Both the position numbers and the translations under genes were made by a program. The notes beneath the pieces are model-generated. The model was given only the letters and a program-made list of their open reading frames with translations, made no database searches and was not told the origin of the DNA. A DNA stretch of 64,000 bases from Candidatus Heimdallarchaeota archaeon (GTDB taxonomy: Archaea > Asgardarchaeota > Heimdallarchaeia > Hodarchaeales > Hodarchaeaceae), in the NCBI GenBank assembly GCA_019057635.1, contig DXJL01000113.1, forward strand, positions 6,737 through 70,736. Direction: 5' to 3'. Positions 1,205 to 19,219 of the stretch are shown here, piece by piece. Every line of letters begins with the position of its first letter. The first letter of the stretch is position 1.

Positions 1205-1753
1205 ATGCCAACTAAATTATTTGGTCGAGAAATCGAAAATCAAATAGCCTTTGTCGGTCTTGCTAATGCAGGAAAAACAACATTAGTAAAACGACTGAAA
1301 GGGCATGATGACTTAGCAACAGTCCCTACTATGGGTATGAATATAGAAACGCTAAAGATTGGTGGTATTGAAGTTATGGCTGTGGATTTAGGTGGACAGC
1401 CTACATATCCTACTAGTCTTTGGGAACCATTTGTTTCAGAAGCATCGGGAGTGGTCTTTGTTTTCGATTCAGCTGACAGAGACAAAGTTGAAACTGCAGC
1501 TAAGTGGCTTAAGAATGTTATTCAATGGGCACCAGAGGATTCTGCATTTTTATTTCTAGCAAATAAACAAGATCTTGATGTTGCAATGTCTTTAGATAAT
1601 ATAATTAAAACCCTTGAACTGGAAACTGAAATGGCAAAACGCCCGCGAACATTTGGGGTTTATCCATGCTCTGCTCTCACTGGAGAAGGCGTTGATGAAC
1701 CTTGGCGATGGATGAGCGAGAGATTTCAAAGTAAACTAGCACAAAGAAAGTAA
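1205..1753 (+). CDS. Arf/Arl-family small GTPase
   Basis: G1 GLANAGKTT, switch I TVPTMGMN, Arf-type G3 VDLGGQ, G4 NKQD and G5 CSAL are all present. Confidence 0.8.
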   Translation: MPTKLFGREIENQIAFVGLANAGKTTLVKRLKGHDDLATVPTMGMNIETLKIGGIEVMAVDLGGQPTYPTSLWEPFVSEASGVVFVFDSADRDKVETAAKWLKNVIQWAPEDSAFLFLANKQDLDVAMSLDNIIKTLELETEMAKRPRTFGVYPCSALTGEGVDEPWRWMSERFQSKLAQRK

Positions 1754-1766
1754 AGAGGTATCTTCA

Positions 1767-2330
1767 ATGAGTTTCCTTACCAAACTACGCTCGAAGTTCG
1801 CAAGAGAACGATTAACGGTGAAAATTGCCTGGTTAGGGCTTGATCATGCAGGAAAGACAACAATCGTCAAAAGAATTACCTCTGGTGAATTCGATGATAG
1901 TACATTTCGTACACTTGGTATGAATGTAGACGAGTTCAGCTCTGGTAATGTTAGATTTATATCTTGGGACATCGGTGGCCAAGAAGCCTTTCGTGAATCC
2001 CTCTGGGAGAGTTATATGGCAGGTTCAATGGGAATTGTTTATGTAATTGATTCAAATGACCGACAACGTTTTGATGAAGCTCAAGCTGAATTATGGAAGT
2101 ATGTCTTAAATAATGATAAGGTAGAAAACATCCCCATTCTGGTACTTGCAAACAAACAAGATCTTGAAAATGCTGCATCAGCTGGAGAAGTTGCTCGCTC
2201 CCTTAATCTTCACAAAGTAACCACTCATTCATATGCAATCGTACCTACTTCAGCTAAAACAGGCTTCAATATTGAAGAAGGATTAGAATGGCTTCGACAG
2301 CGAGTTACTGAAAAAATAGAAACTCTCTGA
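1767..2330 (+). CDS. Arf/Arl-family small GTPase, second tandem copy
   Basis: The N-terminal amphipathic segment MSFLTKLRSKFARE is followed by G1 GLDHAGKTT, G3 WDIGGQ, G4 NKQD and G5 TSAKTG. It lies 13 bp after the previous GTPase. Confidence 0.8.
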   Translation: MSFLTKLRSKFARERLTVKIAWLGLDHAGKTTIVKRITSGEFDDSTFRTLGMNVDEFSSGNVRFISWDIGGQEAFRESLWESYMAGSMGIVYVIDSNDRQRFDEAQAELWKYVLNNDKVENIPILVLANKQDLENAASAGEVARSLNLHKVTTHSYAIVPTSAKTGFNIEEGLEWLRQRVTEKIETL

Positions 2331-2352: not shown

Positions 2353-3147
2353 TTATTTTTTCATAACTTTTTTGTCCGAGACAAGATTTACTCTTTCAGT
2401 TAACGTTATGAATAGTCGATGTAACTTTGTTAGATCTAAATTCTTATTTATTCTGGAATATATACGAATAGAAGGATCTTCTGACGAATCGATAGAAATA
2501 CGTACAACAGAATCACGAATGGCGTATATTTGCTTAAGAAGTGGTTTATCTTTGAGGAAGAAGTCGCCCATACGTTCAGATGTTGCTTTCATTAAAAAGA
2601 ATTGATCTAATAATTCAGAATCAAGTATAACGTCTTTTAACTGAAAAAGTAAGTCTTGATGTTTTTTAATTTGTCCTTCTTCATGATTGGGGATAATTTG
2701 TATTTTTGTTGGTAGTTTCCCTTTTTTTGCATTTCCTTCTAACGCAATGTAGTCATTTGCTCCTGAAAACCATGAGATTATCACAGATAACATTAAATGA
2801 CGCTCTTCCAACGCAAACACGACACGAAAATCTTTGAATGGAATTTTAGATGATTTTTTATATTTAGGAAATAATAGGCCACCATTGGAAGTTATTTGAT
2901 CAGTTACTAAATCATCAAATTCATTAGAAAATATTTCAAGAAGAGCATCCTTTGATACATTGATAATTTTATGATTCTTCCTCCTACCAGACCACAACAG
3001 GTAAAAAGTAAAAAATAGAACTAATCCTGGTCCTAAAAATATTACCATATAATCTAGAAGCCCGTATTGCTCAGATTGAAGAAAGAATTGTCCAATGAAA
3101 AGAAATTTTTCCATAAAAGGGTCGTATATTGCCATTTTGAATCTCAA
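2353..3147 (-). CDS. Hypothetical protein with an N-terminal membrane anchor
   Basis: A hydrophobic helix VIFLGPGLVLFFTFYLLW lies near the N-terminus. No motif was recognised. The ORF is long with a clean frame. Confidence 0.4.
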   Translation of the reverse strand: MRFKMAIYDPFMEKFLFIGQFFLQSEQYGLLDYMVIFLGPGLVLFFTFYLLWSGRRKNHKIINVSKDALLEIFSNEFDDLVTDQITSNGGLLFPKYKKSSKIPFKDFRVVFALEERHLMLSVIISWFSGANDYIALEGNAKKGKLPTKIQIIPNHEEGQIKKHQDLLFQLKDVILDSELLDQFFLMKATSERMGDFFLKDKPLLKQIYAIRDSVVRISIDSSEDPSIRIYSRINKNLDLTKLHRLFITLTERVNLVSDKKVMKK

Positions 3148-3228: not shown

Positions 3229-3801
3229 TCAAGATATATCTAGGTAGCTGGCTATTTCTCTATATTGAAAAATATCACTTTGAGAATTTCCAACGACTTG
3301 AAAAAACTTATATTTGGCGATTCCATCTTCACCAACGTCATTAGGATCAACTACCAGTGCTACTGAAAGAGGTTGAACTAATTGAAAAGAGTATACATGA
3401 GTAGTAATATCAGTTTGTGATAAAAATAATCCATATCCAGGATGTGAATGCCACCAACCCACACAGAATTCTGGACCCGATAATTGATCAAAAACTTGAA
3501 AATCCTCATCAGAAAAAGATACTGAATATTCATCTCCCTGGGTTACATAAATTCCCTTTGATATCATTATTTCTTTTGAGCGAACTTCAATCCCGCTGAG
3601 CAAGCCAATAGCCTCTTTTGGTTTGGCTTCGATAGAATAATTGGTAATTTCTATAATTGTTTGCTGTGATATGGTAACAGAAATTGTCTCTAAACTCAAT
3701 CGAGACATCTCGTTGTTGGCCTGATCTGAATGTAGGCCGTCAATTGATTGGTCTGTTTCGTCCTCATTATCAGAATTTTCAGGGGGATCTTTATTTGTCA
3801 T
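3229..3801 (-). CDS. JAB1/MPN/Mov34 (JAMM) metalloprotease, a putative deubiquitinase of the Rpn11/CSN5 type
   Basis: The JAMM motif is intact: upstream Glu (EAIGLLSG) then HSHPGYGLFLSQTD, which is H-x-H-x7-S-x2-D. There is an acidic N-terminal extension. Confidence 0.85.
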   Translation of the reverse strand: MTNKDPPENSDNEDETDQSIDGLHSDQANNEMSRLSLETISVTISQQTIIEITNYSIEAKPKEAIGLLSGIEVRSKEIMISKGIYVTQGDEYSVSFSDEDFQVFDQLSGPEFCVGWWHSHPGYGLFLSQTDITTHVYSFQLVQPLSVALVVDPNDVGEDGIAKYKFFQVVGNSQSDIFQYREIASYLDIS

Positions 3802-3896: not shown

Positions 3897-4448
3897 CTAA
3901 CTCGTTCCATGCTCTTTTGTCCATTTAACAGCTTTCTCCCAGAAATCATTGAAATTGGACTGCATGGATTTTCCAGCCTCTGGATTGAATGGATCGCCAG
4001 GATCAACGAGGTATTCTGGAAATTCAGAATCTCCTGAACTCTGATAGACATCAAGCATCATTTCGATATGCTCAAATACACTAGGTAGAGTTATAGTCTT
4101 TTTCCATCCACCAAGTTCACCTATATTGTTCCAATTGATTAAACTAAGACAAACATTAGAACCCCATTTCCAACGAGTTTCACCTATAGCAATATTGGGA
4201 TGCCAAATTGGTGTAATAAAATTAACAATTGGAGGTTTGAATGGATATTCAGGTGGTAAATCAACGGTGATTTTCCATTCCCCGTTTTCATACGGAGTGC
4301 CTTCTTTCCCTTTTATTGTAGCAGAGTAGTGATGAAGATCATTATCCACTATTAGCCACTTTATGGTAGCACTTTTTGGGGGATAAATCTTTAGCATTCG
4401 CTTAAATTCTTCCCTTAATCGTCTGGAATGTAGATCAGACATAAGCAA
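3897..4448 (-). CDS. Ubiquitin-conjugating enzyme E2 (UBC fold)
   Basis: PPEYPFKPP, the HPN motif (IWHPNI) and the catalytic Cys context NVCLSLIN are present. Confidence 0.85.
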   Translation of the reverse strand: MLMSDLHSRRLREEFKRMLKIYPPKSATIKWLIVDNDLHHYSATIKGKEGTPYENGEWKITVDLPPEYPFKPPIVNFITPIWHPNIAIGETRWKWGSNVCLSLINWNNIGELGGWKKTITLPSVFEHIEMMLDVYQSSGDSEFPEYLVDPGDPFNPEAGKSMQSNFNDFWEKAVKWTKEHGTS

Positions 4449-4763: not shown

Positions 4764-5552
4764 ATGACTGATATCGAGACAGAAGTTGCCCAGTGTAATG
4801 GATGTGGTGCTCCTCTATTAGGAAACCCTTCTTCTCTTCGTCCCGTTCATTGTGAATATTGTGATTTGACAAACTATCTCAGGAAATCACAGGGAATAGC
4901 TCCTGATGAAAGTTCAGTAAACGAGGAAGTGGAATCTGAACATTATTATCTTTTATATCAAGAATCCCAGAAAATACTGGAAAATTTTCCTGGGGAATTA
5001 GCGGGAGAGGAAGTAGGAAAAATTCGTATTAAAATGCAAGTTGGACAGTACGCATTTCCATTATTGATAGTGCTTGATGATTTACCAGAAAAACCCTTTA
5101 TCGATGGTCCAAATGTTCTTCGAGAAGTTATCAACTGTGAGATTAATGACTTAAATACTATGAAAGATTGGATACCTGGAACAAGTTCGGTATTAGATGT
5201 CTTAGAAGAAATCTACCAGATATCTGAAAATCAACTTCCTCAAAAAATGGAAGGCCCTTCAACGACAAGTGAGTCAAAAAGTACGATTAAAGAAAAAAAT
5301 CCCCTCATACGACAGATCTTGGAAAGTTATGATGCCACGCCAACAAGAAAAGAAATTAAAATTAACTTTTATGCACAAACAGGAGAAGTTATTCCATTCA
5401 CAATCAAAAGAAAAAAGAACTATCCGATAGGTCTCGAAAGTGAAGTTCTTTCGAGGTATCCACTTATCCGCGGACCTTTAGAGGATTATGCGAAAGGTCG
5501 TATTGATCTTATTACTGTGTTGGCCGAAATTGAACGCTTATTCTATGTGTAG
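4764..5552 (+). CDS. N-terminal zinc ribbon plus an E2-variant (UEV/RWD-like) domain protein; a candidate ESCRT-I Vps23/TSG101-like ubiquitin binder
   Basis: CNGCG...CEYCD forms a zinc ribbon. The central region LPEKPFIDGPNV resembles the E2 YPFKPP...HPN region but lacks the HPN motif and the active-site context. Confidence 0.35.
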   Translation: MTDIETEVAQCNGCGAPLLGNPSSLRPVHCEYCDLTNYLRKSQGIAPDESSVNEEVESEHYYLLYQESQKILENFPGELAGEEVGKIRIKMQVGQYAFPLLIVLDDLPEKPFIDGPNVLREVINCEINDLNTMKDWIPGTSSVLDVLEEIYQISENQLPQKMEGPSTTSESKSTIKEKNPLIRQILESYDATPTRKEIKINFYAQTGEVIPFTIKRKKNYPIGLESEVLSRYPLIRGPLEDYAKGRIDLITVLAEIERLFYV

Positions 5553-5574: not shown

Positions 5575-5904
5575 ATGAATAATCGAAAAAAAGATGTTGT
5601 CTGGGACTCAAACGTTAATTCCCAAGGAACAACATCGGATGGTATTGAACGTATGATTAAAGTCCGTTTTAAGGACCCACAACTTCCACCAGATCAAAAC
5701 ATCCGTGAAAAATATATTAACATAAATGGTACAGTTTTTCAAGCAATTACAGCAGCACGTGACGCATTTAATATTCCTGAAGTTGTACCAATCGCACTAC
5801 TGTTTAAAGGTCGAAGAATGAATCCATCAAACAACCTTGTTTCGTACAATATTGAAGATAACGCCCTTCTAATGATAGTACCTGATCAGATAAAAGGGGG
5901 GTAA
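5575..5904 (+). CDS. Ubiquitin-like beta-grasp modifier with a C-terminal Gly-Gly
   Basis: The 109-aa protein ends ...PDQIKGG immediately before the stop codon. Its size and hydrophobic pattern fit a beta-grasp fold. A GAGGT RBS lies 8 nt upstream, and the gene sits directly upstream of E1. Confidence 0.7.
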   Translation: MNNRKKDVVWDSNVNSQGTTSDGIERMIKVRFKDPQLPPDQNIREKYININGTVFQAITAARDAFNIPEVVPIALLFKGRRMNPSNNLVSYNIEDNALLMIVPDQIKGG

Positions 5905-5939: not shown

Positions 5940-7178
5940 ATGAACTCACATCTCCCTTATTCAAAATTTGATCGTCAAGAGCGTCTTTCGATTTGGGACC
6001 AGAGTCTCATTGAAAAAAGTTGTGTGTTAATAATAGGAATAGGAGGAACTGGGGGAGAAGTGGCCAAGAATTTATCTTTACTTGGGGTGGGAAAATTGAT
6101 TTTGGTAGATATGGATACAATCGAATTTTCAAACTTAAACCGCCAACTACTATTTTCAAAAGCAGATATTGGTAAGAATAAAGCAAAGATAGCTAAGAAA
6201 GTAATTAAAAAAAGGTATAATTCCACTTTGAAAATTGAGGCGTATAGTGATCCCATTCAATCACTGCCTTACAGAATTTTTGAGGAAGCTGACATAATTG
6301 CTGGGTGTGTTGATAACTTTCTCGCACGACAATTTATTAATGAAATTGTTATAGAATTATGTTTACCGTTAATCGATTCTGCAACCGATGGTTATTTTGG
6401 CCAGGTACAAAGTGTAAATCCAAGGAAAAACGCTTGTCTGGCTTGCGATTTTCCACCTCCTCCAGAAGAGACTCGCCTTCTATCTGCACCCTGTACTCTT
6501 GTTGGAACTCCAAGAATCAAAGAACATTGTGCATGGAAGGCCCTTTATGAATTTCATACTATGAATGATCGGGAACCTGATGAAAATTCCCCCGATGATG
6601 TTCAGGAGATTACAAACCTAGCAAATAAATTCGCTACCGATCACCAATTCCCACTCTTTGATACCAAAGAGATTATTCAACTTGTATTATACCACGTACC
6701 TAGTCTAATTACTGTTAATGCGGTAACTAGTGGAATTCAATCGCAAGAAATCATAAAAACTCTATTTATCAACAAAATGAAGCTTTTTAAAAAAAAGGAT
6801 CAGAAGGAATTCAAATCTCTTATCCGTGCACAACGATTCAGAATTCCTGATTTAACTATTTATTCTGCACTAACAGGAAATATTAGTTCTTTTAATCTTA
6901 TCAATGATCCAGATTGTTTGGTGTGTGGTAATTCTTCAATTTACCACCAAACTCCAGTAACAATAAATGTAAACCCAAAGTTGAAATGCAAAACGATTTT
7001 TACAATATTAAAGCGTAGATTCAAGAAAAATTATATAGGTTTTAGAGGAAATTTCATTATTCCAGCGGAAGCATTAATAGAAAATATTCTTCAAGACGGG
7101 GATAGAATAACCGTTAGTTCACTAGATGATGATAAAGAAAAAAGAATAAGAATTAAATTTAAAAAGAAGAAGGGTTAA
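5940..7178 (+). CDS. E1-like ubiquitin-activating enzyme (ThiF/MoeB/UBA fold)
   Basis: The nucleotide-binding GIGGTGGEVAKNL and the motif LVDMDTIEFSNLNRQ are present. There are CxxC pairs (CLACDF), a Cys-containing segment APCTLVGTP, and a roughly 150-aa C-terminal extension. Confidence 0.85.
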   Translation: MNSHLPYSKFDRQERLSIWDQSLIEKSCVLIIGIGGTGGEVAKNLSLLGVGKLILVDMDTIEFSNLNRQLLFSKADIGKNKAKIAKKVIKKRYNSTLKIEAYSDPIQSLPYRIFEEADIIAGCVDNFLARQFINEIVIELCLPLIDSATDGYFGQVQSVNPRKNACLACDFPPPPEETRLLSAPCTLVGTPRIKEHCAWKALYEFHTMNDREPDENSPDDVQEITNLANKFATDHQFPLFDTKEIIQLVLYHVPSLITVNAVTSGIQSQEIIKTLFINKMKLFKKKDQKEFKSLIRAQRFRIPDLTIYSALTGNISSFNLINDPDCLVCGNSSIYHQTPVTINVNPKLKCKTIFTILKRRFKKNYIGFRGNFIIPAEALIENILQDGDRITVSSLDDDKEKRIRIKFKKKKG

Positions 7179-7657: not shown

Positions 7658-9418
7658 TTGTGCATCATGTTAAGACGAAAGAAGAAGAAATGGCTAGAAG
7701 CAGTTTCTACGGCACAATCACCAATACGGATAGAGGATTTTTCTTCTTCTACTGATAAAATGAATGTTGTCGCCTTTTTATATGAAAAAATCCAACAACA
7801 ACAATTGGATGGGCTTTTAGACTATAATCATATCTATTTCATTCCGAAATCACATATCTACAAAAAAATTCAACAATTTCTAGACGCACAAGGAATGGTT
7901 GATATATGTGAACTAATAGACCTAATGAATTTACCAGGTAATTTGCTTGAGCCTATTATCCATGATTACGTGCAAGAAATAGACGGTTTTTTTGATTTAA
8001 TCAAACGAAAATTCTTTACACGATCAGGAGCTATCTCATTCATTACTAAACTTCTTGGTAACACTCCCACGCATGATCTTGAATATTTACTAAATCAGAT
8101 ATACTGGACAGATCACCAATTAGAAGCTGTATTAGACTTAATGGCGCAAAAAGATCTATTCAGGGGTTATATTGACCCTATCAAACAACGTTTATACAAC
8201 TTCAAATCCCTTCGTTTTTCCCTTACTACTCCGAATGAAGGATCGATGAGAGCCCTATCCCGATTCATAAATGCATCATTCCAAATTTCTTCAGAAGTTT
8301 CTTTAATAGACATTTCTCGCCTTACAACGCTACCACAGGATGATCCATTGAAATTTCTTGAACTCTTTGAGAATCGTTTGAGTTATATTAGTTCTAAGGA
8401 TAGAGATTATATATACTCTACAATCGATATTGTTTCGCAAATTATATGGGATATTTATGTGTATGAAGAGATACCTTTGGATTTCTGGGTAGCCAGGTTT
8501 GATCTTGGGTTTGAAGCCTTATCTGATCTATTATTAGTATTAAATGAAAGTTTTCGTGGTAGCTTATCAAAAAAGTTTCTAAAAGGTATTTCTTTGATTC
8601 ATTGGTTCGAACAAGGAATTGATATTGAAGGATTAGCTACAAAAATAAATATAGACGTCTTGAGATTGTTAAAAGAGATAACAACTATAGCCCTTCGTTT
8701 AGAACTTCGTTTGGTGGCAGGTGATTCAATAAATCCGTTTCTAGTGAAAGGAATCAGAGATTTAGAGATATTTTGTCAAATTGATACTTCCTCATATTCC
8801 AATCCTTCAGTATACTTTGAGTGCCAAAATTGTAGGAGGGTAATGTGCTCAAACTGCAGAAAAATTGATAGCACCCATGAATGTCCGTTTTGTGGAAATA
8901 TTTCTGCGTTTATTATCGATCTACCACGGAATTGTCCTACTTGCCAATTGACCTATGCTTATTCATATAATCTTGAAACAACTGAGGAGTGCTATTTCTG
9001 TGAACAAGGTCCATTGAAATCTGGATGGTTTACTTCAGAGCAAAAACCCTTGAGTCTTACCGCTACTGAAAATCAATTTGTTAATTTCATCCAGAATCAT
9101 CATTCTCCAATAATTCCTTTACAACAAATTATTGATTTTGTTAGTCAATCATCAGAAGAAGTCATAAAAATACTAGAAAAACTCATTACTCACAAAATCA
9201 TTGCGGGAACAATTAGCATTCAAAAATTGCAATTGAAAATTAAAAAAGCTTATGTTTCGTTTGAGTGTGTGGTTTGTAAATGGGTTAAAACCGATAAAAA
9301 GAAGTTTATCTGTAATTTGTGTAACGGAGAAGTCTGTGAAAATTGTTATCAAGGGATGGAGTCGGTTGGAATGGTTGATTGTCCAGAATGTGGATCATCT
9401 CTTGAGTTAGTAGAATAA
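7658..9418 (+). CDS. Large alpha-helical protein with a C-terminal cluster of zinc-ribbon/treble-clef modules; a candidate E3-like or ubiquitin-binding component
   Basis: The C-terminal 200 aa contain at least five CxxC pairs: CQNC-CSNC-CPFC, CPTC-CYFC and CVVC-x10-CNLC-CENC-CPEC. The C-x2-C-x10-C-x2-C spacing matches the RanBP2/NZF type. Confidence 0.4.
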   Translation: MCIMLRRKKKKWLEAVSTAQSPIRIEDFSSSTDKMNVVAFLYEKIQQQQLDGLLDYNHIYFIPKSHIYKKIQQFLDAQGMVDICELIDLMNLPGNLLEPIIHDYVQEIDGFFDLIKRKFFTRSGAISFITKLLGNTPTHDLEYLLNQIYWTDHQLEAVLDLMAQKDLFRGYIDPIKQRLYNFKSLRFSLTTPNEGSMRALSRFINASFQISSEVSLIDISRLTTLPQDDPLKFLELFENRLSYISSKDRDYIYSTIDIVSQIIWDIYVYEEIPLDFWVARFDLGFEALSDLLLVLNESFRGSLSKKFLKGISLIHWFEQGIDIEGLATKINIDVLRLLKEITTIALRLELRLVAGDSINPFLVKGIRDLEIFCQIDTSSYSNPSVYFECQNCRRVMCSNCRKIDSTHECPFCGNISAFIIDLPRNCPTCQLTYAYSYNLETTEECYFCEQGPLKSGWFTSEQKPLSLTATENQFVNFIQNHHSPIIPLQQIIDFVSQSSEEVIKILEKLITHKIIAGTISIQKLQLKIKKAYVSFECVVCKWVKTDKKKFICNLCNGEVCENCYQGMESVGMVDCPECGSSLELVE

Positions 9419-9426
9419 ATTAGTTA

Positions 9427-10320
9427 TTATGACGATTTTTCGGCTTTTATTTTTGCGAGTTTTGATGAATATTTATCGGCTATTTCTTTATATCGTTTTT
9501 CAGAGATTTTACCTCCTAAAAACATCTCATCAGCCTGTTCGAGCATTAATTCGAATTTTTTAATTTTTTCTGAAACCTCATCAAATTTATTTCGCTCTTC
9601 TGCGAGTTCCTGTTGAGTTTCAATAATTTGCTTTTCAATCTCATACGTAAGTAAGGTTTCGTACTCTTCAGGCACTTTAAATCCACCAATATCTAATCCT
9701 ACTAGTTCTAGGCCCCATCGAGAGCTTTCAGGACCTAATTCAGATCTTGTTTGAATTTCTAAGCTTCTTCTGTCTTTTAATAACTCAGGTACAGTGTAAC
9801 GAGTCATAACATGTTTAACAGCTGCTATCACCGTCTGTTTCACCCAATTTTTAAGCTCATTTCCACTATAATACTGTTTATGGGAGACTACGTTCATGAT
9901 AAAATTCCTTGGATTCACAATCCGCATCCGAGAAATTCCCCAACATCCCACCATAACATTGTCTGAGGTGTAAATACCAGGCGTTCCCCATTTAATGATA
10001 AATTCACGTTTTGTAACCCATATAATTTCACTTCCAGGATGCTTCGCTGTTTTTTCCAATTGATAAATTCCACTCCCAGCAACTCCAACTAGCACCCCTG
10101 ACTGTAACAACACGGCATTTTCTGGTTCTTTTACAATAAAGCCGTCAATTTTTCTAAAGTTATCATTTTCTTCTGCTTTCACTCTATGAATTAACGATTC
10201 ACCAAGTGAATCATCAAATTTTGAGCTTAGAATCGCTTTTCCCTTGAATTTCTTGGTACCTATGTGAATTGTATCCCCTATTTTACGGAATAGTCCACCA
10301 AATTTGTCTGTTTCCGCCAT
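9427..10320 (-). CDS. SPFH/band-7 (stomatin/prohibitin-like) domain protein with a C-terminal coiled coil
   Basis: TSDNVMVGCWGISRMRIVNPRNF and NELKNWVKQTVIAAVKHVMTRYTVPELLKDRRSLEI follow the band-7 core pattern. The C-terminus is Lys/Glu-rich and helical. Confidence 0.5.
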   Translation of the reverse strand: MAETDKFGGLFRKIGDTIHIGTKKFKGKAILSSKFDDSLGESLIHRVKAEENDNFRKIDGFIVKEPENAVLLQSGVLVGVAGSGIYQLEKTAKHPGSEIIWVTKREFIIKWGTPGIYTSDNVMVGCWGISRMRIVNPRNFIMNVVSHKQYYSGNELKNWVKQTVIAAVKHVMTRYTVPELLKDRRSLEIQTRSELGPESSRWGLELVGLDIGGFKVPEEYETLLTYEIEKQIIETQQELAEERNKFDEVSEKIKKFELMLEQADEMFLGGKISEKRYKEIADKYSSKLAKIKAEKSS

Positions 10321-10329
10321 CGCTTCTAC

Positions 10330-11331
10330 CTACCAATCTTCATCTCCATATAACCCTGGAAAGTAATACTGATCTCCTGAATCAAGTGATGACACTTTTC
10401 GAGCAACTTTTTGATTGACAAGACTATCTAAGACCCTCATTACTCGTTGTTGATCCCATTTAGTATGAATCATAACTTCCTCAAATGTTACATAGCCTTT
10501 ATCTATTGCTAGATTAAATATGTTCCGGGCATCTTTTCCAAGAGCTACTGGTGTAAACTCGACAATTTTTATGCCAGATTGTTTGGAAACTCCTTCAATT
10601 AACGATTGTTTAGTTAGTTGTTTACAGGCCTTTTCTAAATCTTTCAATGAAAACTTGATATCTGGAACTTGATTTTTCAGAGAAGTATACAAGTTTGCCA
10701 TTGAAATATAACCACCTGAACTTGCTCTAAGAGTTTTTCCTTGTTCAAGGATTAAATCAGCAAGATTGTCAACAAATTTCCCTTTCCCAAATATTTTTGG
10801 CTTTTTTGTTGCATCTAACGCGGTTATTGTTAGTGTACGCCCTTCTTTTCGGAGTAACTCTCTCTCTAATTGCTGAATGCGGGAATCATATTTCTTCTGT
10901 AAATTCTTAATTCCCTCGGTTGATACTGGAGCTCCGTTAGCCAACTTATTTTGAACTTGAACTACCTCTTCTAATCGCGTTATCTGTTCACGAAGATCTA
11001 ACAACTCACTGCGGAGATCTAATTCTTTATTCCCAAATTCAAGATCATCAATTAATAGTTTAGACCGTTCTGTTATTTGGTCACAAAGAATAGTTGCCAG
11101 TAGCTGCGCAACACGGATTTCCCCACTTTCCTTTAAATTGGCCATTTTATTATCAGAGTAGAGTATTATATCAGGCACAGTTTCGCTTAAATACCTAATC
11201 TCTTCAAATTGTGTATAAAATTTAATTACTAGATCTGATATGTGTTTAGCTTTCATTGCAGCAGTATTACTTAATTGATTTAGCGCATTACTTGCAGTTT
11301 GAAATTTTTCTCTCAAAATAAGGGTCACCAC
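10330..11331 (-). CDS. ESCRT-II subunit Vps22/EAP30 homologue (tandem winged helix with an N-terminal coiled coil)
   Basis: SGGYISMANLYTSLKNQ...SLKDLEKACKQL...IKIVEF...GYVTFEEV...WDQQRVMRVLDSLV...YYFPGLY aligns with the EAP30/Vps22 pattern GG-I-L-EL...DL-RA-KKL...GYVT...W...RA-VL-L...YW-P-LF. Confidence 0.75.
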   Translation of the reverse strand: MVTLILREKFQTASNALNQLSNTAAMKAKHISDLVIKFYTQFEEIRYLSETVPDIILYSDNKMANLKESGEIRVAQLLATILCDQITERSKLLIDDLEFGNKELDLRSELLDLREQITRLEEVVQVQNKLANGAPVSTEGIKNLQKKYDSRIQQLERELLRKEGRTLTITALDATKKPKIFGKGKFVDNLADLILEQGKTLRASSGGYISMANLYTSLKNQVPDIKFSLKDLEKACKQLTKQSLIEGVSKQSGIKIVEFTPVALGKDARNIFNLAIDKGYVTFEEVMIHTKWDQQRVMRVLDSLVNQKVARKVSSLDSGDQYYFPGLYGDEDW

Positions 11332-11655: not shown

Positions 11656-12150
11656 TTATTCACTTTTCTTTACTTTCTGAGCCATTAAATATGCCCCTTC
11701 CATATCACGGTAATAATGACGCAATTCTTTAACAATTTTATAATCTAGAGACTCATACAATTTTACGGCAGCAGTGTTTGACATCCTTACTTCGAGAAAA
11801 AGCTCGTCTGCTCCATATTCTCTCATTGCTTCAGATGAAGCATTAATTAGCTTTGTAGCAACTTTGCTTCGTCTATATTCGGGTAGAACAGCAATACTTA
11901 CCGTGTGACCCTTTTTAGCCCGGTGAAAAATTGAAAAGAGACTCAGACCACTTTCAATTCGACCCATGGTGTATCCGACAATGATTCCATTTACTTCAGC
12001 CAGAGCAAATCCTTTGGGGCATTCTGAAAAAATAGTGCGGAAAAAACTTTCAGGGTAATTTTCAGGTAAACATTGACGATTTATATCTATAACTTTGTCT
12101 AGATCTCTTAGTTCGAAATAACGAATGATTATTGATGTCTGTTCGGTCAT
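11656..12150 (-). CDS. GNAT N-acetyltransferase (RimI/NatA-like)
   Basis: Motif A is present: IAVLPEYRRSKVATKLI, within the Q/RxxGxG/A region. The 164-aa size is typical. Confidence 0.8.
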   Translation of the reverse strand: MTEQTSIIIRYFELRDLDKVIDINRQCLPENYPESFFRTIFSECPKGFALAEVNGIIVGYTMGRIESGLSLFSIFHRAKKGHTVSIAVLPEYRRSKVATKLINASSEAMREYGADELFLEVRMSNTAAVKLYESLDYKIVKELRHYYRDMEGAYLMAQKVKKSE

Positions 12151-15777: not shown

Positions 15778-16302
15778 TTGGAAAAAGACAACCAGGAGAT
15801 TGCTAGCTTGATAGATCCACGAAGGTTTGACAGTGTACTCAGTAAAATCATAAAAAGTGAACCCGGTATCCGAAAAATTATTCTAGTCGACCGGACTGGT
15901 CTTACGATCGCTCATGTTTCCAAGTTTAGTTATGTATCTGTTGATGTTGATGGCATTGGAGCAATTGCTTCAGCTGTATTTATGGCATCAGCAGAACAAG
16001 GATCTAATCTGACAATTGGCGGATTGGATATTGTCACTTCAGAATTCGATACTGGTAAAATATTCGCAAGCGCTTGTGGCCGAGGAATTTTGACAATAAT
16101 CTCAGATGCTGAGGTTAATATCGGAATGATCCGCTTACTCATGAGAAAGGCTAATGAGGAACTTAGCTCAATCCTTGATGAGTTTTTAGCTGGACAACCA
16201 TCTCGAGCCTTCTCAGGAATTGCCTCTGAAGCACCTGAAGTTCGTACTGGGCTCGAAAAAGATGAACTTGAAGCCGCGCTACGAGAGCTTGAAAAATTCT
16301 AA
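15778..16302 (+). CDS. Roadblock/LC7 (MglB-like) domain protein
   Basis: IRKIILVDRTGLTIAHV...DGIGAIASAVFMASAEQGSNLTIGGLDIV follows the Robl/LC7 alpha-beta-alpha pattern. Confidence 0.7.
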   Translation: MEKDNQEIASLIDPRRFDSVLSKIIKSEPGIRKIILVDRTGLTIAHVSKFSYVSVDVDGIGAIASAVFMASAEQGSNLTIGGLDIVTSEFDTGKIFASACGRGILTIISDAEVNIGMIRLLMRKANEELSSILDEFLAGQPSRAFSGIASEAPEVRTGLEKDELEAALRELEKF

Positions 16303-16344: not shown

Positions 16345-16926
16345 TTGCGAAAAGACGCAGAAGGTCGTCATAGATTTAAAATAGTATTTTATGGTCCCTC
16401 TCTCTGTGGAAAAACAACAACTCTTGGTTGGCTTTATCATAAGGTTGATGGTTTAGAAAAGGGGAAATTTACTCAACTAGCTGATCCACATGGACGCACG
16501 CTTTTTTTTGATTTTGCACCCATGCAAGCTACTACAGGAGTGGTTTTTGACGTTTACACTACAGCAGGACAGGAAAGACATAAACACCAGCGTAAAATAG
16601 TTATTCAGGGGGTAGATGGCATCTTATTTGTTGTTGATTCTTCATCAGATCAGCTTCAAGAAAATATTGCTTCTTTCGAGGAGCTTACAACTCATTTGGG
16701 GGAAGATTTAGGCACCACAATTCCTTTAGTTATTGCTTTGAACAAACGAGATGCTGAGGATGCACTACCAAGATCAGAGCTAATTGAAAAATTAAAATTA
16801 TCCAATTATCCAATTTATGAAACTGTGGCTACTACGGGTATTGGGATAAAGCGTGCTTTCCAATCATTAGCCCGTGAAATATTAATGATACAATTATACG
16901 GAACTAAGACATCTCAGAATAATTAG
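16345..16926 (+). CDS. Ras-superfamily small GTPase (MglA/Rag-like)
   Basis: G1 GPSLCGKTT, G3-like VYTTAGQER (T in place of D, as in MglA) and G4 NKRD are present. Roadblock genes flank it. Confidence 0.75.
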   Translation: MRKDAEGRHRFKIVFYGPSLCGKTTTLGWLYHKVDGLEKGKFTQLADPHGRTLFFDFAPMQATTGVVFDVYTTAGQERHKHQRKIVIQGVDGILFVVDSSSDQLQENIASFEELTTHLGEDLGTTIPLVIALNKRDAEDALPRSELIEKLKLSNYPIYETVATTGIGIKRAFQSLAREILMIQLYGTKTSQNN

Positions 16927-17442: not shown

Positions 17443-17895
17443 ATGTCTAAGCAAAGATATGTGCGGAAATTTGTTTACAAGGGTGTAAGAATGTACATTC
17501 CCGATACTGATGCAGATCTACAAATGCATAAAGAAATAGTCGAAGTCTTGGAAGCATTTGTTAGTAAATTGCCAGCTATAGACTTTGCTAGCGTTGTTAG
17601 TCTTGAAGGACTTCCCATTTCCTCTTGGCCTCCTAAACTTCCAGGTGATTTGGATGATGTGCGAATAGCCGCAATGACTGCGGCAATTCTTAGTTTAGGC
17701 GAGAGAGCTGTCATGGAAACGGGGAAAGGAGAAATGACACGGATTCTTGTCGAAGGAAACGATGGTTACCTTATTTCAGTTCAATCTGGTAGTAAAGCAG
17801 TATTAACTGCTTCAGCAAACAGATCGGTGAAATTGGGCTTAATTTTTCTTGATATGAAACAGGCTGCAAAGAAAGTCGGTGAAATACTGGGTTAG
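17443..17895 (+). CDS. Roadblock/LC7 domain protein, second copy
   Basis: The pattern FASVVSLEGLPISS...AAMTAAILSLGERA...ILVEGNDGYLIS is Robl/LC7-like. Confidence 0.6.
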   Translation: MSKQRYVRKFVYKGVRMYIPDTDADLQMHKEIVEVLEAFVSKLPAIDFASVVSLEGLPISSWPPKLPGDLDDVRIAAMTAAILSLGERAVMETGKGEMTRILVEGNDGYLISVQSGSKAVLTASANRSVKLGLIFLDMKQAAKKVGEILG

Positions 17896-17971: not shown

Positions 17972-19219
17972 CTAATAGAGCTTATTCCTCATTGATTGGG
18001 CCTTTTGATAATAAAAATCGTGCAAAACAGATTCATTTAACTCTTGAACAATTTCCGCTGCTCTTTCATAATAAATCAGAGCAGAGTCATAATTCTCCTT
18101 AGTAGCTTCAAAATCTCCAAATTCCCCATAAGCTATCATTAGATTATATTTGTCCCCCGATTTCTCAAAATATTCAATGGCTTCTGTCAGATAATGGGGT
18201 GCTTGCACATCACTAGAGACATCTCCCAATTTAAGATTTTGGCATAGTACTTTAGCAATGTTAATTTGGGCAATTGCTAAGTTATGCTTATCATTGCGTT
18301 CTTCTGCATGGCCACGCGCAATATCAAAGTTTTTAAGTGAACTATCATAATTAGCTAAACGATAATAGCATTCTCCAATATTCATATACGCATTCACAAC
18401 AGCTTTGTGAAAATTAGCTTTTTGGGCTTTTTCTAATGCGTTCTCAAAGACCGAAACTGCTTCTTGAAAATTATTTTGCTCATATAATATTATTCCCTCG
18501 GTTGACAAGACGTTCTCTTCAAGCATTGGGTCACCTAATTCCTTAGAAATCCGTCTTACGTTTTCTAAGAGTTCCTGTGCCAGAGCAGAATTCTTTGCTT
18601 CAACAGCTTCCTCTAGCTGAGCAAACGCGGCATGAAATTGACCATTCAAATCGGCTAGAATTGTGAAAATTTGTTCTGCCTTTTTAAAATTTGCTTTTGC
18701 CTTTTTTGGATCAGTAGATAAAATTCTTCTGCCTGCGTCAAGCAGTCGCCACGGTTCTTCCCCAATTATATCTGCAATCTTCCTCCACTCTTGCTTAGAG
18801 TTGCCGCAAATCACGCTTTTACTTCGCCATTTTTGTGGAAATTCAAATAATTCATTAACCAAGTCTAAAAGAAGGTTATTATCCCCCCCTGCCTGAGCTG
18901 CTACACTTTTGGGACCAACAGCACGAAGTTTGAGATCTCCCTCTGAAAATTCAAATAATACTCCGAGAGGAACAGATTTCTTCTTGTCTTCTCCCCATTT
19001 TCTGCCAACAATTAATAGAAAATTCTTTGATGGAAAATCAATATCTTCACGACTGACTGTTTTCAGTGCAAGCAACCAGTGATAGTCTGTATCAAAAAAA
19101 CTCGAGATTAACCTACCCTGAAATTCGGGATCCCAATCAACCAGATCCTCAACATCGGCTAATTCGATTACCTCCTCCTGACCAGCCCCTAAAGCAAAAT
19201 GAACTTTCCAAATGACCAT
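17972..19219 (-). CDS. TPR-repeat protein with an uncharacterised N-terminal domain
   Basis: Repeated A-x-x-x-Y/N pattern units fill the C-terminal 250 aa (AYMNIGECYYRLANYDSSLKNF, AIEYFEKSGDKYNLMIAYGEFGDF, ALIYYERAAEI). Confidence 0.6.
   Translation of the reverse strand: MVIWKVHFALGAGQEEVIELADVEDLVDWDPEFQGRLISSFFDTDYHWLLALKTVSREDIDFPSKNFLLIVGRKWGEDKKKSVPLGVLFEFSEGDLKLRAVGPKSVAAQAGGDNNLLLDLVNELFEFPQKWRSKSVICGNSKQEWRKIADIIGEEPWRLLDAGRRILSTDPKKAKANFKKAEQIFTILADLNGQFHAAFAQLEEAVEAKNSALAQELLENVRRISKELGDPMLEENVLSTEGIILYEQNNFQEAVSVFENALEKAQKANFHKAVVNAYMNIGECYYRLANYDSSLKNFDIARGHAEERNDKHNLAIAQINIAKVLCQNLKLGDVSSDVQAPHYLTEAIEYFEKSGDKYNLMIAYGEFGDFEATKENYDSALIYYERAAEIVQELNESVLHDFYYQKAQSMRNKLY

Follow-up and report, generated by a model that had tools for sequence, protein, structure and literature searches.

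Two adjacent genes, designated G1 and G2, lie near the start of a 64,000-nucleotide stretch of DNA from Candidatus Heimdallarchaeota archaeon (contig DXJL01000113.1; the whole stretch is referred to here as the window). Both encode small GTPases of the Arf family and belong to ArfR, the Asgard branch of that family. The analysis makes it likely that G1 and G2 are two anciently diverged ArfR members held in a conserved two-gene operon, in which G2 would operate like the crystallised Asgard GTPase HodArfR1, G1 would be soluble, and the two proteins would act jointly.

Arf-family identity of G1 and G2

G1 (positions 1205..1753, forward strand, 182 amino acids) is predicted to belong to an ArfR subfamily without the N-terminal amphipathic helix, and G2 (1767..2330, forward strand, 187 amino acids) to the HodArfR1 type. 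The spacer between the two open reading frames (ORFs) is exactly 13 nucleotides (nt) long. The Arf G3 motif DxGGQ, the G4 motif NKxD, and the G5 motif SA are all present in each protein. G1 carries the P-loop GLANAGKT at residues 18-25 (nt 1256-1279), DLGGQ at residues 61-65 (nt 1385-1399), and NKQD at residues 120-123 (nt 1562-1573), all on the forward strand, followed by SAL as G5. The corresponding elements of G2, on the same strand, are GLDHAGKT at residues 24-31 (nt 1836-1859), DIGGQ, within the longer WDIGGQ, at residues 68-72 (nt 1968-1982), and NKQD at residues 129-132 (nt 2151-2162), followed by SAK. The initial annotation, made from the sequence alone, had described two ORFs 13 bp apart with DxGGQ and NKQD motifs, and its coordinates and motifs are borne out.

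Profile comparisons place both proteins in the Arf family. G1 matches the Pfam Arf model PF00025 with 128.7 bits (E 2e-37, profile positions 7-172 of 174) and G2 with 164.9 bits (E 2e-48, positions 6-173 of 174), the cut-off of the model being 22.3 bits. These scores are far above those for Ras, Roc, and SRPRB: the Ras profile gave 41 bits for G1 and 64.5 bits for G2, and the SRPRB profile, well under the Arf scores, 49 and 42 bits. The only other small GTPase in the window, an MglA-like ORF (16345-16926), served as an internal control and shows the generic small-GTPase scores on the Arf and Ras models (45.7 versus 44.5 bits).

Sequence matches of G1 and G2 in the PDB belong exclusively to the Arf family, with Asgard ArfR structures on top. 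For G2, the HodArfR1 entries 8OUL and 8OUK were matched with 272 and 260 bits (E 1e-80); the two proteins are ~64% identical (blastp), and it is on this identity to a crystallised protein that the Arf fold of G2 rests. Homologues at 60-97% identity to G2 occur in metagenome-assembled genomes (MAGs) of Hodarchaeales. The best PDB sequence match of G1 is GerdArfR1 (8OUN, 104 bits), with yeast Arl1 and Arf1/6 close behind. An AlphaFold2 (AF2) model of G1, with a predicted local distance difference test score (pLDDT) of 87 and a predicted template-modelling score (pTM) of 0.86, superimposes on GTP-bound GerdArfR1 with a template-modelling (TM) score of 0.87, and its top-50 PDB matches in Foldseek are all Arf-family chains.

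A phylogeny was built from an alignment of G1, G2, their relatives, eukaryotic Arf/Arl matches, PDB chains, and references from Table S3 of Vargova et al. that are annotated as ArfL, ArfR, RasL, RagGtr, MglA1, or MglA2-5. In the resulting neighbour-joining tree (68 sequences, 168 columns, 200 bootstraps), G1 and G2 fall together with ArfR and eukaryotic Arf/Arl sequences, and ArfL, RasL, and MglA lie outside (70% bootstrap). The G1 family is monophyletic (96.5% bootstrap), and the MglA-like gene of the window clusters with the MglA1 references. ArfL, reportedly the Asgard 'Arf-like' group of Klinger et al. 2016, resembles G1 and G2 in comprising small Asgard GTPases with DxGGQ and NKQD. It nevertheless branches apart: the ArfL references NVM27612.1, NVM28297.1, and KKK45962.1 group on a branch of their own, separate from the clade of G1 and G2, and are missing two parts that G1 and G2 share, the N-terminal extension and a segment of 8 residues ahead of G5. 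Published trees likewise place ArfL outside the Arf clade (bioRxiv 10.1101/2024.02.28.582541; PMC11914678).

It is extremely improbable that G1 and G2 stem from eukaryotic contamination or are GTPases of a generic Ras-like, MglA, or ArfL kind rather than true Arf relatives: G1 does lack the P-loop Asp and the interswitch Trp, both often cited as Arf-specific, but the profile scores, the PDB matches, the tree, and the Foldseek matches of G1 speak against a generic GTPase, the N-terminal extension and pre-G5 segment against ArfL, and the uniform ~36% GC of the archaeal contig together with synteny in more than 20 Asgard MAGs against contamination. The generic identities were accordingly rejected, the best profile and tree affinity of both proteins lying elsewhere, as was contamination, given the even GC content along the contig, the archaeal neighbours, and the synteny. 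An identity as SR-beta was rejected as well, since both proteins lack a hydrophobic segment at the N-terminus and carry DxGGQ instead of a DxPGH-type G3 motif. The Arf-family identity proposed in the initial annotation is confirmed by the full-length PF00025 matches, the Arf-only PDB matches, and the grouping with ArfR and Arf/Arl; the grouping with Ras-like or MglA GTPases that it had named as the contrary outcome was seen neither in the profiles nor in the tree. Arf-family GTPases were also described there as rare outside Asgard archaea, and their restriction to Asgard archaea is supported by the literature.

Strong purifying selection acts on both genes: the ratios of nonsynonymous to synonymous substitution rates (dN/dS) against orthologues are 0.005-0.09. 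The first 12.3 kb of the window are 98.1% identical in DNA sequence to NJBF01000001.1 of Candidatus Heimdallarchaeota archaeon B3_Heim (Hodarchaeales), where the copies of G1 (PWI49548.1) and of the membrane protein encoded downstream of the pair (PWI49550.1) are annotated 'hypothetical protein'. B3_Heim is among the 62 genomes surveyed by Vargova et al. (bioRxiv 10.1101/2024.02.28.582541).

N-termini and switch regions of G2 and G1

ArfR has been described as the Asgard clade that gave rise to the eukaryotic Arf family, distinct from ArfL, and two of its members, HodArfR1 and GerdArfR1, bind membranes in yeast in a manner that depends on GTP and on the N-terminal helix; deletion of the helix of HodArfR1 abolished binding (Vargova et al., bioRxiv 10.1101/2024.02.28.582541). 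Their structures in the GDP and GTP states (8OUK, 8OUL, 8OUM, and 8OUN) display the Arf-type interswitch toggle (bioRxiv 10.1101/2024.02.28.582541). Zhu et al. independently described 210 such proteins, termed AArfs, of which only a small branch binds membranes (PMC11914678). An N-terminal helix was found in 45 of ~100 screened ArfRs (bioRxiv 10.1101/2024.02.28.582541) and in 19 of the 210 AArfs (PMC11914678), and GTP- and helix-dependent membrane binding has been shown, in yeast, HeLa cells, or liposomes, only for HodArfR1 and GerdArfR1 (bioRxiv 10.1101/2024.02.28.582541) and for five AArfs (PMC11914678).

The N-terminus of G2 reads MSFLTKLRSKFAR, and its residues 2-13 (SFLTKLRSKFAR; 1770..1805, forward strand) form a predicted amphipathic helix with a hydrophobic moment of 0.53 and a net charge of +4. 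This segment aligns without gaps to residues 2-13 of HodArfR1, and F3, L4, L7, and F11 of G2 occupy the positions of four HodArfR1 residues, F3, F4, L7, and I11, that lie buried in the GDP-bound structure 8OUL. The suggestion in the initial annotation that the second protein begins with an Arf-like amphipathic helix is therefore upheld, the hydrophobic pattern matching the buried residues of HodArfR1. Trp67 of G2 stands at the position of Arf1 W66, and a Trp precedes DxGGQ in 53 of 54 members of the G2 family. The P-loop GLDHAGKT retains the Leu and Asp of the consensus GLDxxGK[ST], which Zhu et al. cite as Arf-specific (PMC11914678).

On these grounds G2 is classified, from its sequence, as a HodArfR1-type protein with a retained helix. 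It resembles HodArfR1 (OLS23013.1; 8OUK with GTP, 8OUL with GDP; from Heimdallarchaeota LC_3) over residues 1-184 (272 bits), in length, in the pattern of the N-terminal helix, in WDIGGQ and NKQD, and in genomic position as the second gene after a G1-type ArfR. The two proteins differ in species of origin and at P-loop residue 31, which is Ser in HodArfR1 and Thr in G2. A solo paralogue in LC_3 (P0018) is 66% identical to G2, as similar as HodArfR1 itself, so that the orthology of G2 and HodArfR1 rests on synteny and not on identity alone. By analogy, G2 most likely works like HodArfR1, as a helix- and GTP-dependent membrane switch. In the GDP state the N-terminal amphipathic helix would be tucked into a pocket of the GTPase core; in the GTP state a two-residue shift of the interswitch hairpin would expel the helix, which would then bind the membrane, and no myristoylation would be involved.

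G1 presents a different N-terminus, ~7 residues shorter than that of Arf1. Only 13 residues precede strand 1, among them Pro2 and Gly7, and residues 2-13 have a net charge of 0. The sequence LFGRE of G1 aligns to the linker at residues 12-17 of Arf1, and the motif LFG(K/R)E is almost invariant in the G1 family. No N-terminal helix appears in the AF2 model, where this region has low confidence (pLDDT about 60). Because of the short N-terminus, Pro2 and Gly7, the zero net charge, the linker alignment, and the AF2 model, G1 is predicted to lack the amphipathic helix. It belongs to a separate ArfR subfamily, which comes mainly from Hodarchaeales-type MAGs. The initial annotation mentioned neither this ancient split into different ArfR subfamilies, nor the predicted loss of the helix in G1, nor the earlier publication of the class.

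The switch region of G1 is altered as well. Ala59 occupies the position of Arf1 Trp66, and across the G1 family this position is Ala in 51 of 86 members and Val in 22 (73 of 86 together). The P-loop GLANAGKT retains the Leu and replaces the Asp, at a position that varies across the family. From the switch-1 Thr to DxGGQ, both G1 and G2 align gap-free to Arf1 and HodArfR1 and thus have the Arf interswitch length. The catalytic Gln and the nucleotide-binding motifs of G1 are kept and its dN/dS is low (0.03-0.09), which suggests a functional GTPase with a changed effector surface and without the usual membrane anchor. With its motifs intact, its helix lost, and its switch and interswitch surface altered, G1 probably acts as a soluble GTP switch that is specific for other partners.

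Comparison with known systems sharpens these assignments. GerdArfR1 (NHJ47629.1; 8OUM/8OUN) is ~35% identical to G1, matches its AF2 model as described above, and also lacks the interswitch Trp, with Phe in its place where G1 has Ala. Residues 2-11 of GerdArfR1 nevertheless form a functional amphipathic helix, and the protein binds membranes, whereas G1 starts ~4 residues before the LFG motif; the two belong to different subfamilies. Eukaryotic Arf1, Arf6, Arl1, Arl2, and Arl3 share with G1 and G2 the fold, DxGGQ, NKQD, the interswitch length, and 33-44% identity. Unlike them, G1 and G2 lack Gly2, and with it myristoylation, and are arranged in a prokaryotic operon. No regulators with Sec7 or ArfGAP domains were found among the neighbouring ORFs scanned against Pfam.

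The conserved G1-G2 pair

Conservation of the pair was assessed in 80 loci obtained by scanning one genome per GTDB species, to which further loci were added from contigs (individual loci are cited by number, L001 onward). At 24 of the 29 distinct G2-family loci with enough upstream sequence, the gene immediately preceding the G2-type gene on the same strand belongs to the G1 family. In other genomes the two genes are 0-33 nt apart, based on automated start calls, and identity at the paired loci falls to as low as 51% for the G1-type protein and ranges over 61-99% for the G2-type protein. In LC_3 (L085 10001-12734, MDVS01000046.1), the G1-type gene OLS23014.1 is followed after 3 nt by HodArfR1, OLS23013.1, and the second ORF (L085:10586-11140) translates exactly to the sequence of 8OUL. 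As far as searched, the main texts of Vargova et al. and Zhu et al. do not mention the pairing of G1-type and G2-type genes.

The 13-nt spacer of the window contains a Shine-Dalgarno-like GAGGT (1755..1759, forward strand) 7 nt before the G2 start codon. Each of the nine orthologous loci inspected has AGGT(G/A) 7-9 nt ahead of the G2 start codon, while the remainder of the spacer varies. The conservation of this motif implies that G1 and G2 are translated from a single, putatively bicistronic mRNA. Upstream of G1, no promoter motif was kept beyond the closest relatives.

The pair did not arise by recent tandem duplication, a possibility that was rejected: G1 and G2 are ~35% identical and fall into separate subfamilies, and no more than 7.5% of bootstraps unite them as exclusive sisters. 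The joint retention of the two genes and their apparent co-translation from a single mRNA suggest that G1 and G2 probably serve one common process, either as steps of a cascade or as members of a complex; the membrane anchor would come from G2.

Alternatively, G1 and G2 could be functionally unrelated, with common descent within a single order as the sole reason for the persisting tandem. All paired loci were found in Hodarchaeales-type MAGs, and the flanking ThrRS, CGI-121, and THUMP genes are themselves partly conserved, as expected of general retention of synteny; solo G2-type genes with no G1 next door (L022, L023, L081, L088, and L089) point the same way. However, the pair has outlasted the reshuffling of its surroundings, being found in at least four different downstream contexts, and the spacer stays at 0-33 nt with a Shine-Dalgarno-like motif even where G1 has diverged to ~51% and G2 to 61% identity. 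Unrelated functions are thus considered unlikely, without being negligible.

The solo genes are also among the observations that weigh against the reading of G1 and G2 as diverged ArfR proteins acting jointly from one operon. Three of the five come from genomes that have another G2-type locus, the pair being shown for LC_3 and Dive96_bin3.136; Hodarchaeales thus contain both paired and solo lineages of the G2 subfamily. Fused G1-G2 proteins are absent from the ~300 relatives fetched, none of which has two P-loops; relatives of ~300 amino acids consist of one GTPase domain with a C-terminal extension. The hydrophobic moment of residues 2-13 fails to separate the two N-termini (0.475 for G1 versus 0.525 for G2). 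Finally, the neighbour-joining tree is crude: it nests RagGtr inside the ArfR region, an artefact, and its deep branching is unreliable. Joint action of a membrane-bound G2 and a soluble G1 from one operon remains the preferred reading.

The solo paralogue P0018 of LC_3 (L081 10001-10564, MDVS01000111.1) is annotated 'GTPase HflX'.

Control or anchoring of one Arf-type GTPase by another is known from eukaryotes, in the Arl13B-Arl3 exchange pair, the Arfrp1-to-Arl1 cascade, and SR-alpha/SR-beta. These systems (Arl13B-Arl3 is represented by PDB 5DI3) are the closest known parallel to a co-expressed pair in which one member bears the helix and the other does not, and chains of both Arl13B and Arl3 are among the structural matches of G1 in Foldseek. 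G1 differs in lacking the extra domains of Arl13B and the membrane anchor of SR-beta. Helix-less G1 might regulate, or be recruited by, the HodArfR1-type membrane switch, possibly together with the CCDC47-like protein described below; such a two-GTPase module is speculative and is judged rather improbable.

Neighbouring genes and meaning of the pair

Immediately beyond G2, separated by 22 nt and convergent to it, lies a gene for a 260-amino-acid single-pass membrane protein, TM264 (2353..3135, reverse strand); a 100% identical NCBI protein of 260 amino acids begins at the ATG. TM264 itself has no Pfam match. Among its relatives, 12 of 21 close ones and 7 of 24 diverse ones gave weak matches to PF07946 (CCDC47), the only family hit consistently; the matches run collinearly through positions 11-252 of the 326-position profile, with a top score of 25.5 bits, under the gathering cut-off of 27.7. 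With an AF2 model of TM264 (pLDDT 75.9), Foldseek returned only 9i78_4, 7tm3_4, and 6w6l_7 at E <1e-3 (TM score 0.51-0.58; E 3e-6 to 4e-5); these three are CCDC47 chains, and the PDB contains no other CCDC47 sequences. The topology also corresponds to that of CCDC47, with one transmembrane helix, a basic juxtamembrane G-x-x-K-N motif (GRRKNHK in TM264, GKNKNSR in human CCDC47), and a cytosolic alpha/beta domain. By sequence, a profile search against PDB sequences and an hhalign comparison with human CCDC47 were both negative. Based on the structural model and the weak profile matches, TM264, an unknown membrane-anchored protein in the initial annotation, is probably CCDC47-like, the relation being remote. 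Only 26 clusters belong to this small family in a set of 1.84 billion representatives, and no link between CCDC47 and Asgard archaea was found in the papers searched.

Genes of the TM264 family adjoin G2-type genes in three lineages and three arrangements (L001-L019; L090; L085/L086). L090 has the convergent arrangement, with 71% identity for G2 and 34% for TM264, and a homologue of the C-terminus of a 586-amino-acid protein of the ubiquitin cluster (see below) stands there directly upstream of the TM264-like gene. LC_3 (L085) and L086 show the co-oriented order G1-type, HodArfR1 type, GNAT, and TM252. The GNAT acetyltransferase that follows HodArfR1 in LC_3 is 54% identical to the product of 11656-12150 of the window, and the TM264 homologue comes next. 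Arl8 and Arfrp1 need N-terminal acetylation, which a GNAT gene beside a membrane-binding Arf recalls.

Could the pair act with TM264 in the biogenesis or targeting of membrane proteins, TM264 serving the GTPases as receptor, exchange factor, or effector? The Arf-family GTPase SR-beta and CCDC47 both act at the translocon of the eukaryotic endoplasmic reticulum, and the recurrence of the two genes side by side in three lineages and arrangements would fit such a partnership. Against it, L083, L084, and L087 have the pair with no TM264 homologue within 8-10 kb, and the distant TM264 relatives L091, L093, and L095 have no Arf gene nearby. The window and LC_3 differ by an inversion and by the insertion of the ubiquitin block between the TM264-type gene and the shared GNAT, so the adjacency may be residual synteny, and the CCDC47 relation is itself remote, sub-threshold in Pfam, and negative in profile searches against PDB sequences. 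The analogy is accordingly given little credence; the adjacency of TM264 and the pair may be functional or may be leftover synteny.

Beyond TM264 follow genes for a JAMM protein (3229-3801), an E2 (3897-4448), a ubiquitin-like protein ending in GG (5575-5904), and an E1 (5940-7178). The EAP30/Vps36-like, ESCRT-II-type gene at 10330-11331 (reverse strand) is the only ESCRT-type gene verified in the window, and an SPFH/Band-7 gene (9427-10320, reverse strand) lies directly beside it; this SPFH-EAP30 order is kept in all L001-L019 loci that extend far enough. Two further genes are conserved members of the ubiquitin cluster. One, between E2 and Ub (4764-5552, forward strand), encodes a 262-amino-acid protein with an N-terminal zinc ribbon and no convincing Pfam match; the other (7658-9418, forward strand) encodes the 586-amino-acid cysteine-rich protein, with only a faint match to UFM1-E3-ligase in Pfam.

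A functional tie, in which Arf switches recruit or regulate ubiquitin-dependent membrane remodelling, is suggested by the order ThrRS-G1-G2-TM264-JAMM-E2-orf262-Ub-E1-Zn-ribbon-orf586-SPFH-EAP30, which is kept in 19 species-level genomes (L001-L019), and by the EAP30/Vps36-like gene 8 kb away. These 19 genomes are close relatives, however, forming one clade with G2 identity of at least 86%, so their shared order may be inherited, and in L083-L087 the pair is kept (G2 61-70% identical) with no ubiquitin gene within 8-10 kb. Downstream of the pair stand an unknown 345-amino-acid ORF followed by SBDS/exosome genes in L083 and L087, AAA/VWA genes in L084, and the GNAT acetyltransferase in L085 and L086. 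Moreover, the pair is transcribed convergently to TM264-JAMM-E2 rather than co-oriented with the nearest ubiquitin-cluster genes. A tie to the ubiquitin and ESCRT genes is consequently held to be very unlikely. Because distant pairs have other neighbours and the pair is convergent, the ubiquitin adjacency is regarded as lineage-specific and not as evidence of a functional link. The trafficking-related neighbourhood proposed in the initial annotation is weakly supported: the ubiquitin genes are found where it had placed them, but the adjacency is confined to one clade and the pair is convergent. The older context of the pair looks like one of housekeeping genes, because ThrRS recurs directly upstream in the window and L087, and CGI-121/THUMP upstream in L085-L087.

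Two further sets of loci were noticed. The MglA-like GTPase of the window (16345-16926, forward strand) is flanked by Roadblock/LC7 genes at 15778-16302 and 17443-17895, and the segment 15778-17895 (forward strand) looks like a classic MglA/MglB-type module; a gene for a TPR protein (17972-19219) stands next to the second Roadblock/LC7 gene on the reverse strand, opposite to the GTPase. Arf-like genes 38-41% identical to G2 also occur on short contigs labelled Microbacterium, Clostridiales, and Rickettsiales (L027, L029, and L061, respectively), the last with two such genes in tandem (600-1088 and 1131-1661). These could be eukaryotic contamination or the result of horizontal transfer.

The Arf identity of G1 and G2 is published biology, the class having been described in 2024-25 with crystal structures, and the two genes add nothing to the settled matter of whether Asgard archaea have Arf proteins. 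What is new is modest: an order-wide conserved operon that joins a predicted helix-less ArfR subfamily to a HodArfR1-type switch, beside a probably CCDC47-like protein. No Arf exchange factors or GTPase-activating proteins were identified in the window, which makes the partner GTPase or TM264 candidate regulators. The conserved pairing, of which HodArfR1 is one half, is in this respect a testable lead on regulation. If the two-GTPase module were true, the published work on HodArfR1 would have covered half of a functional pair, and the module would be a prokaryotic precursor of the Arf cascades of eukaryotes or of SR-beta/translocon-associated GTPase systems. If the CCDC47-like nature of TM264 were confirmed, a component of the eukaryotic multipass translocon would join the eukaryotic signature proteins of Hodarchaeales. 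All eukaryotic Arf-family switches are proposed to descend from Asgard ArfR proteins, so that the function of these proteins in Asgard cells is relevant to how the endomembrane system arose.

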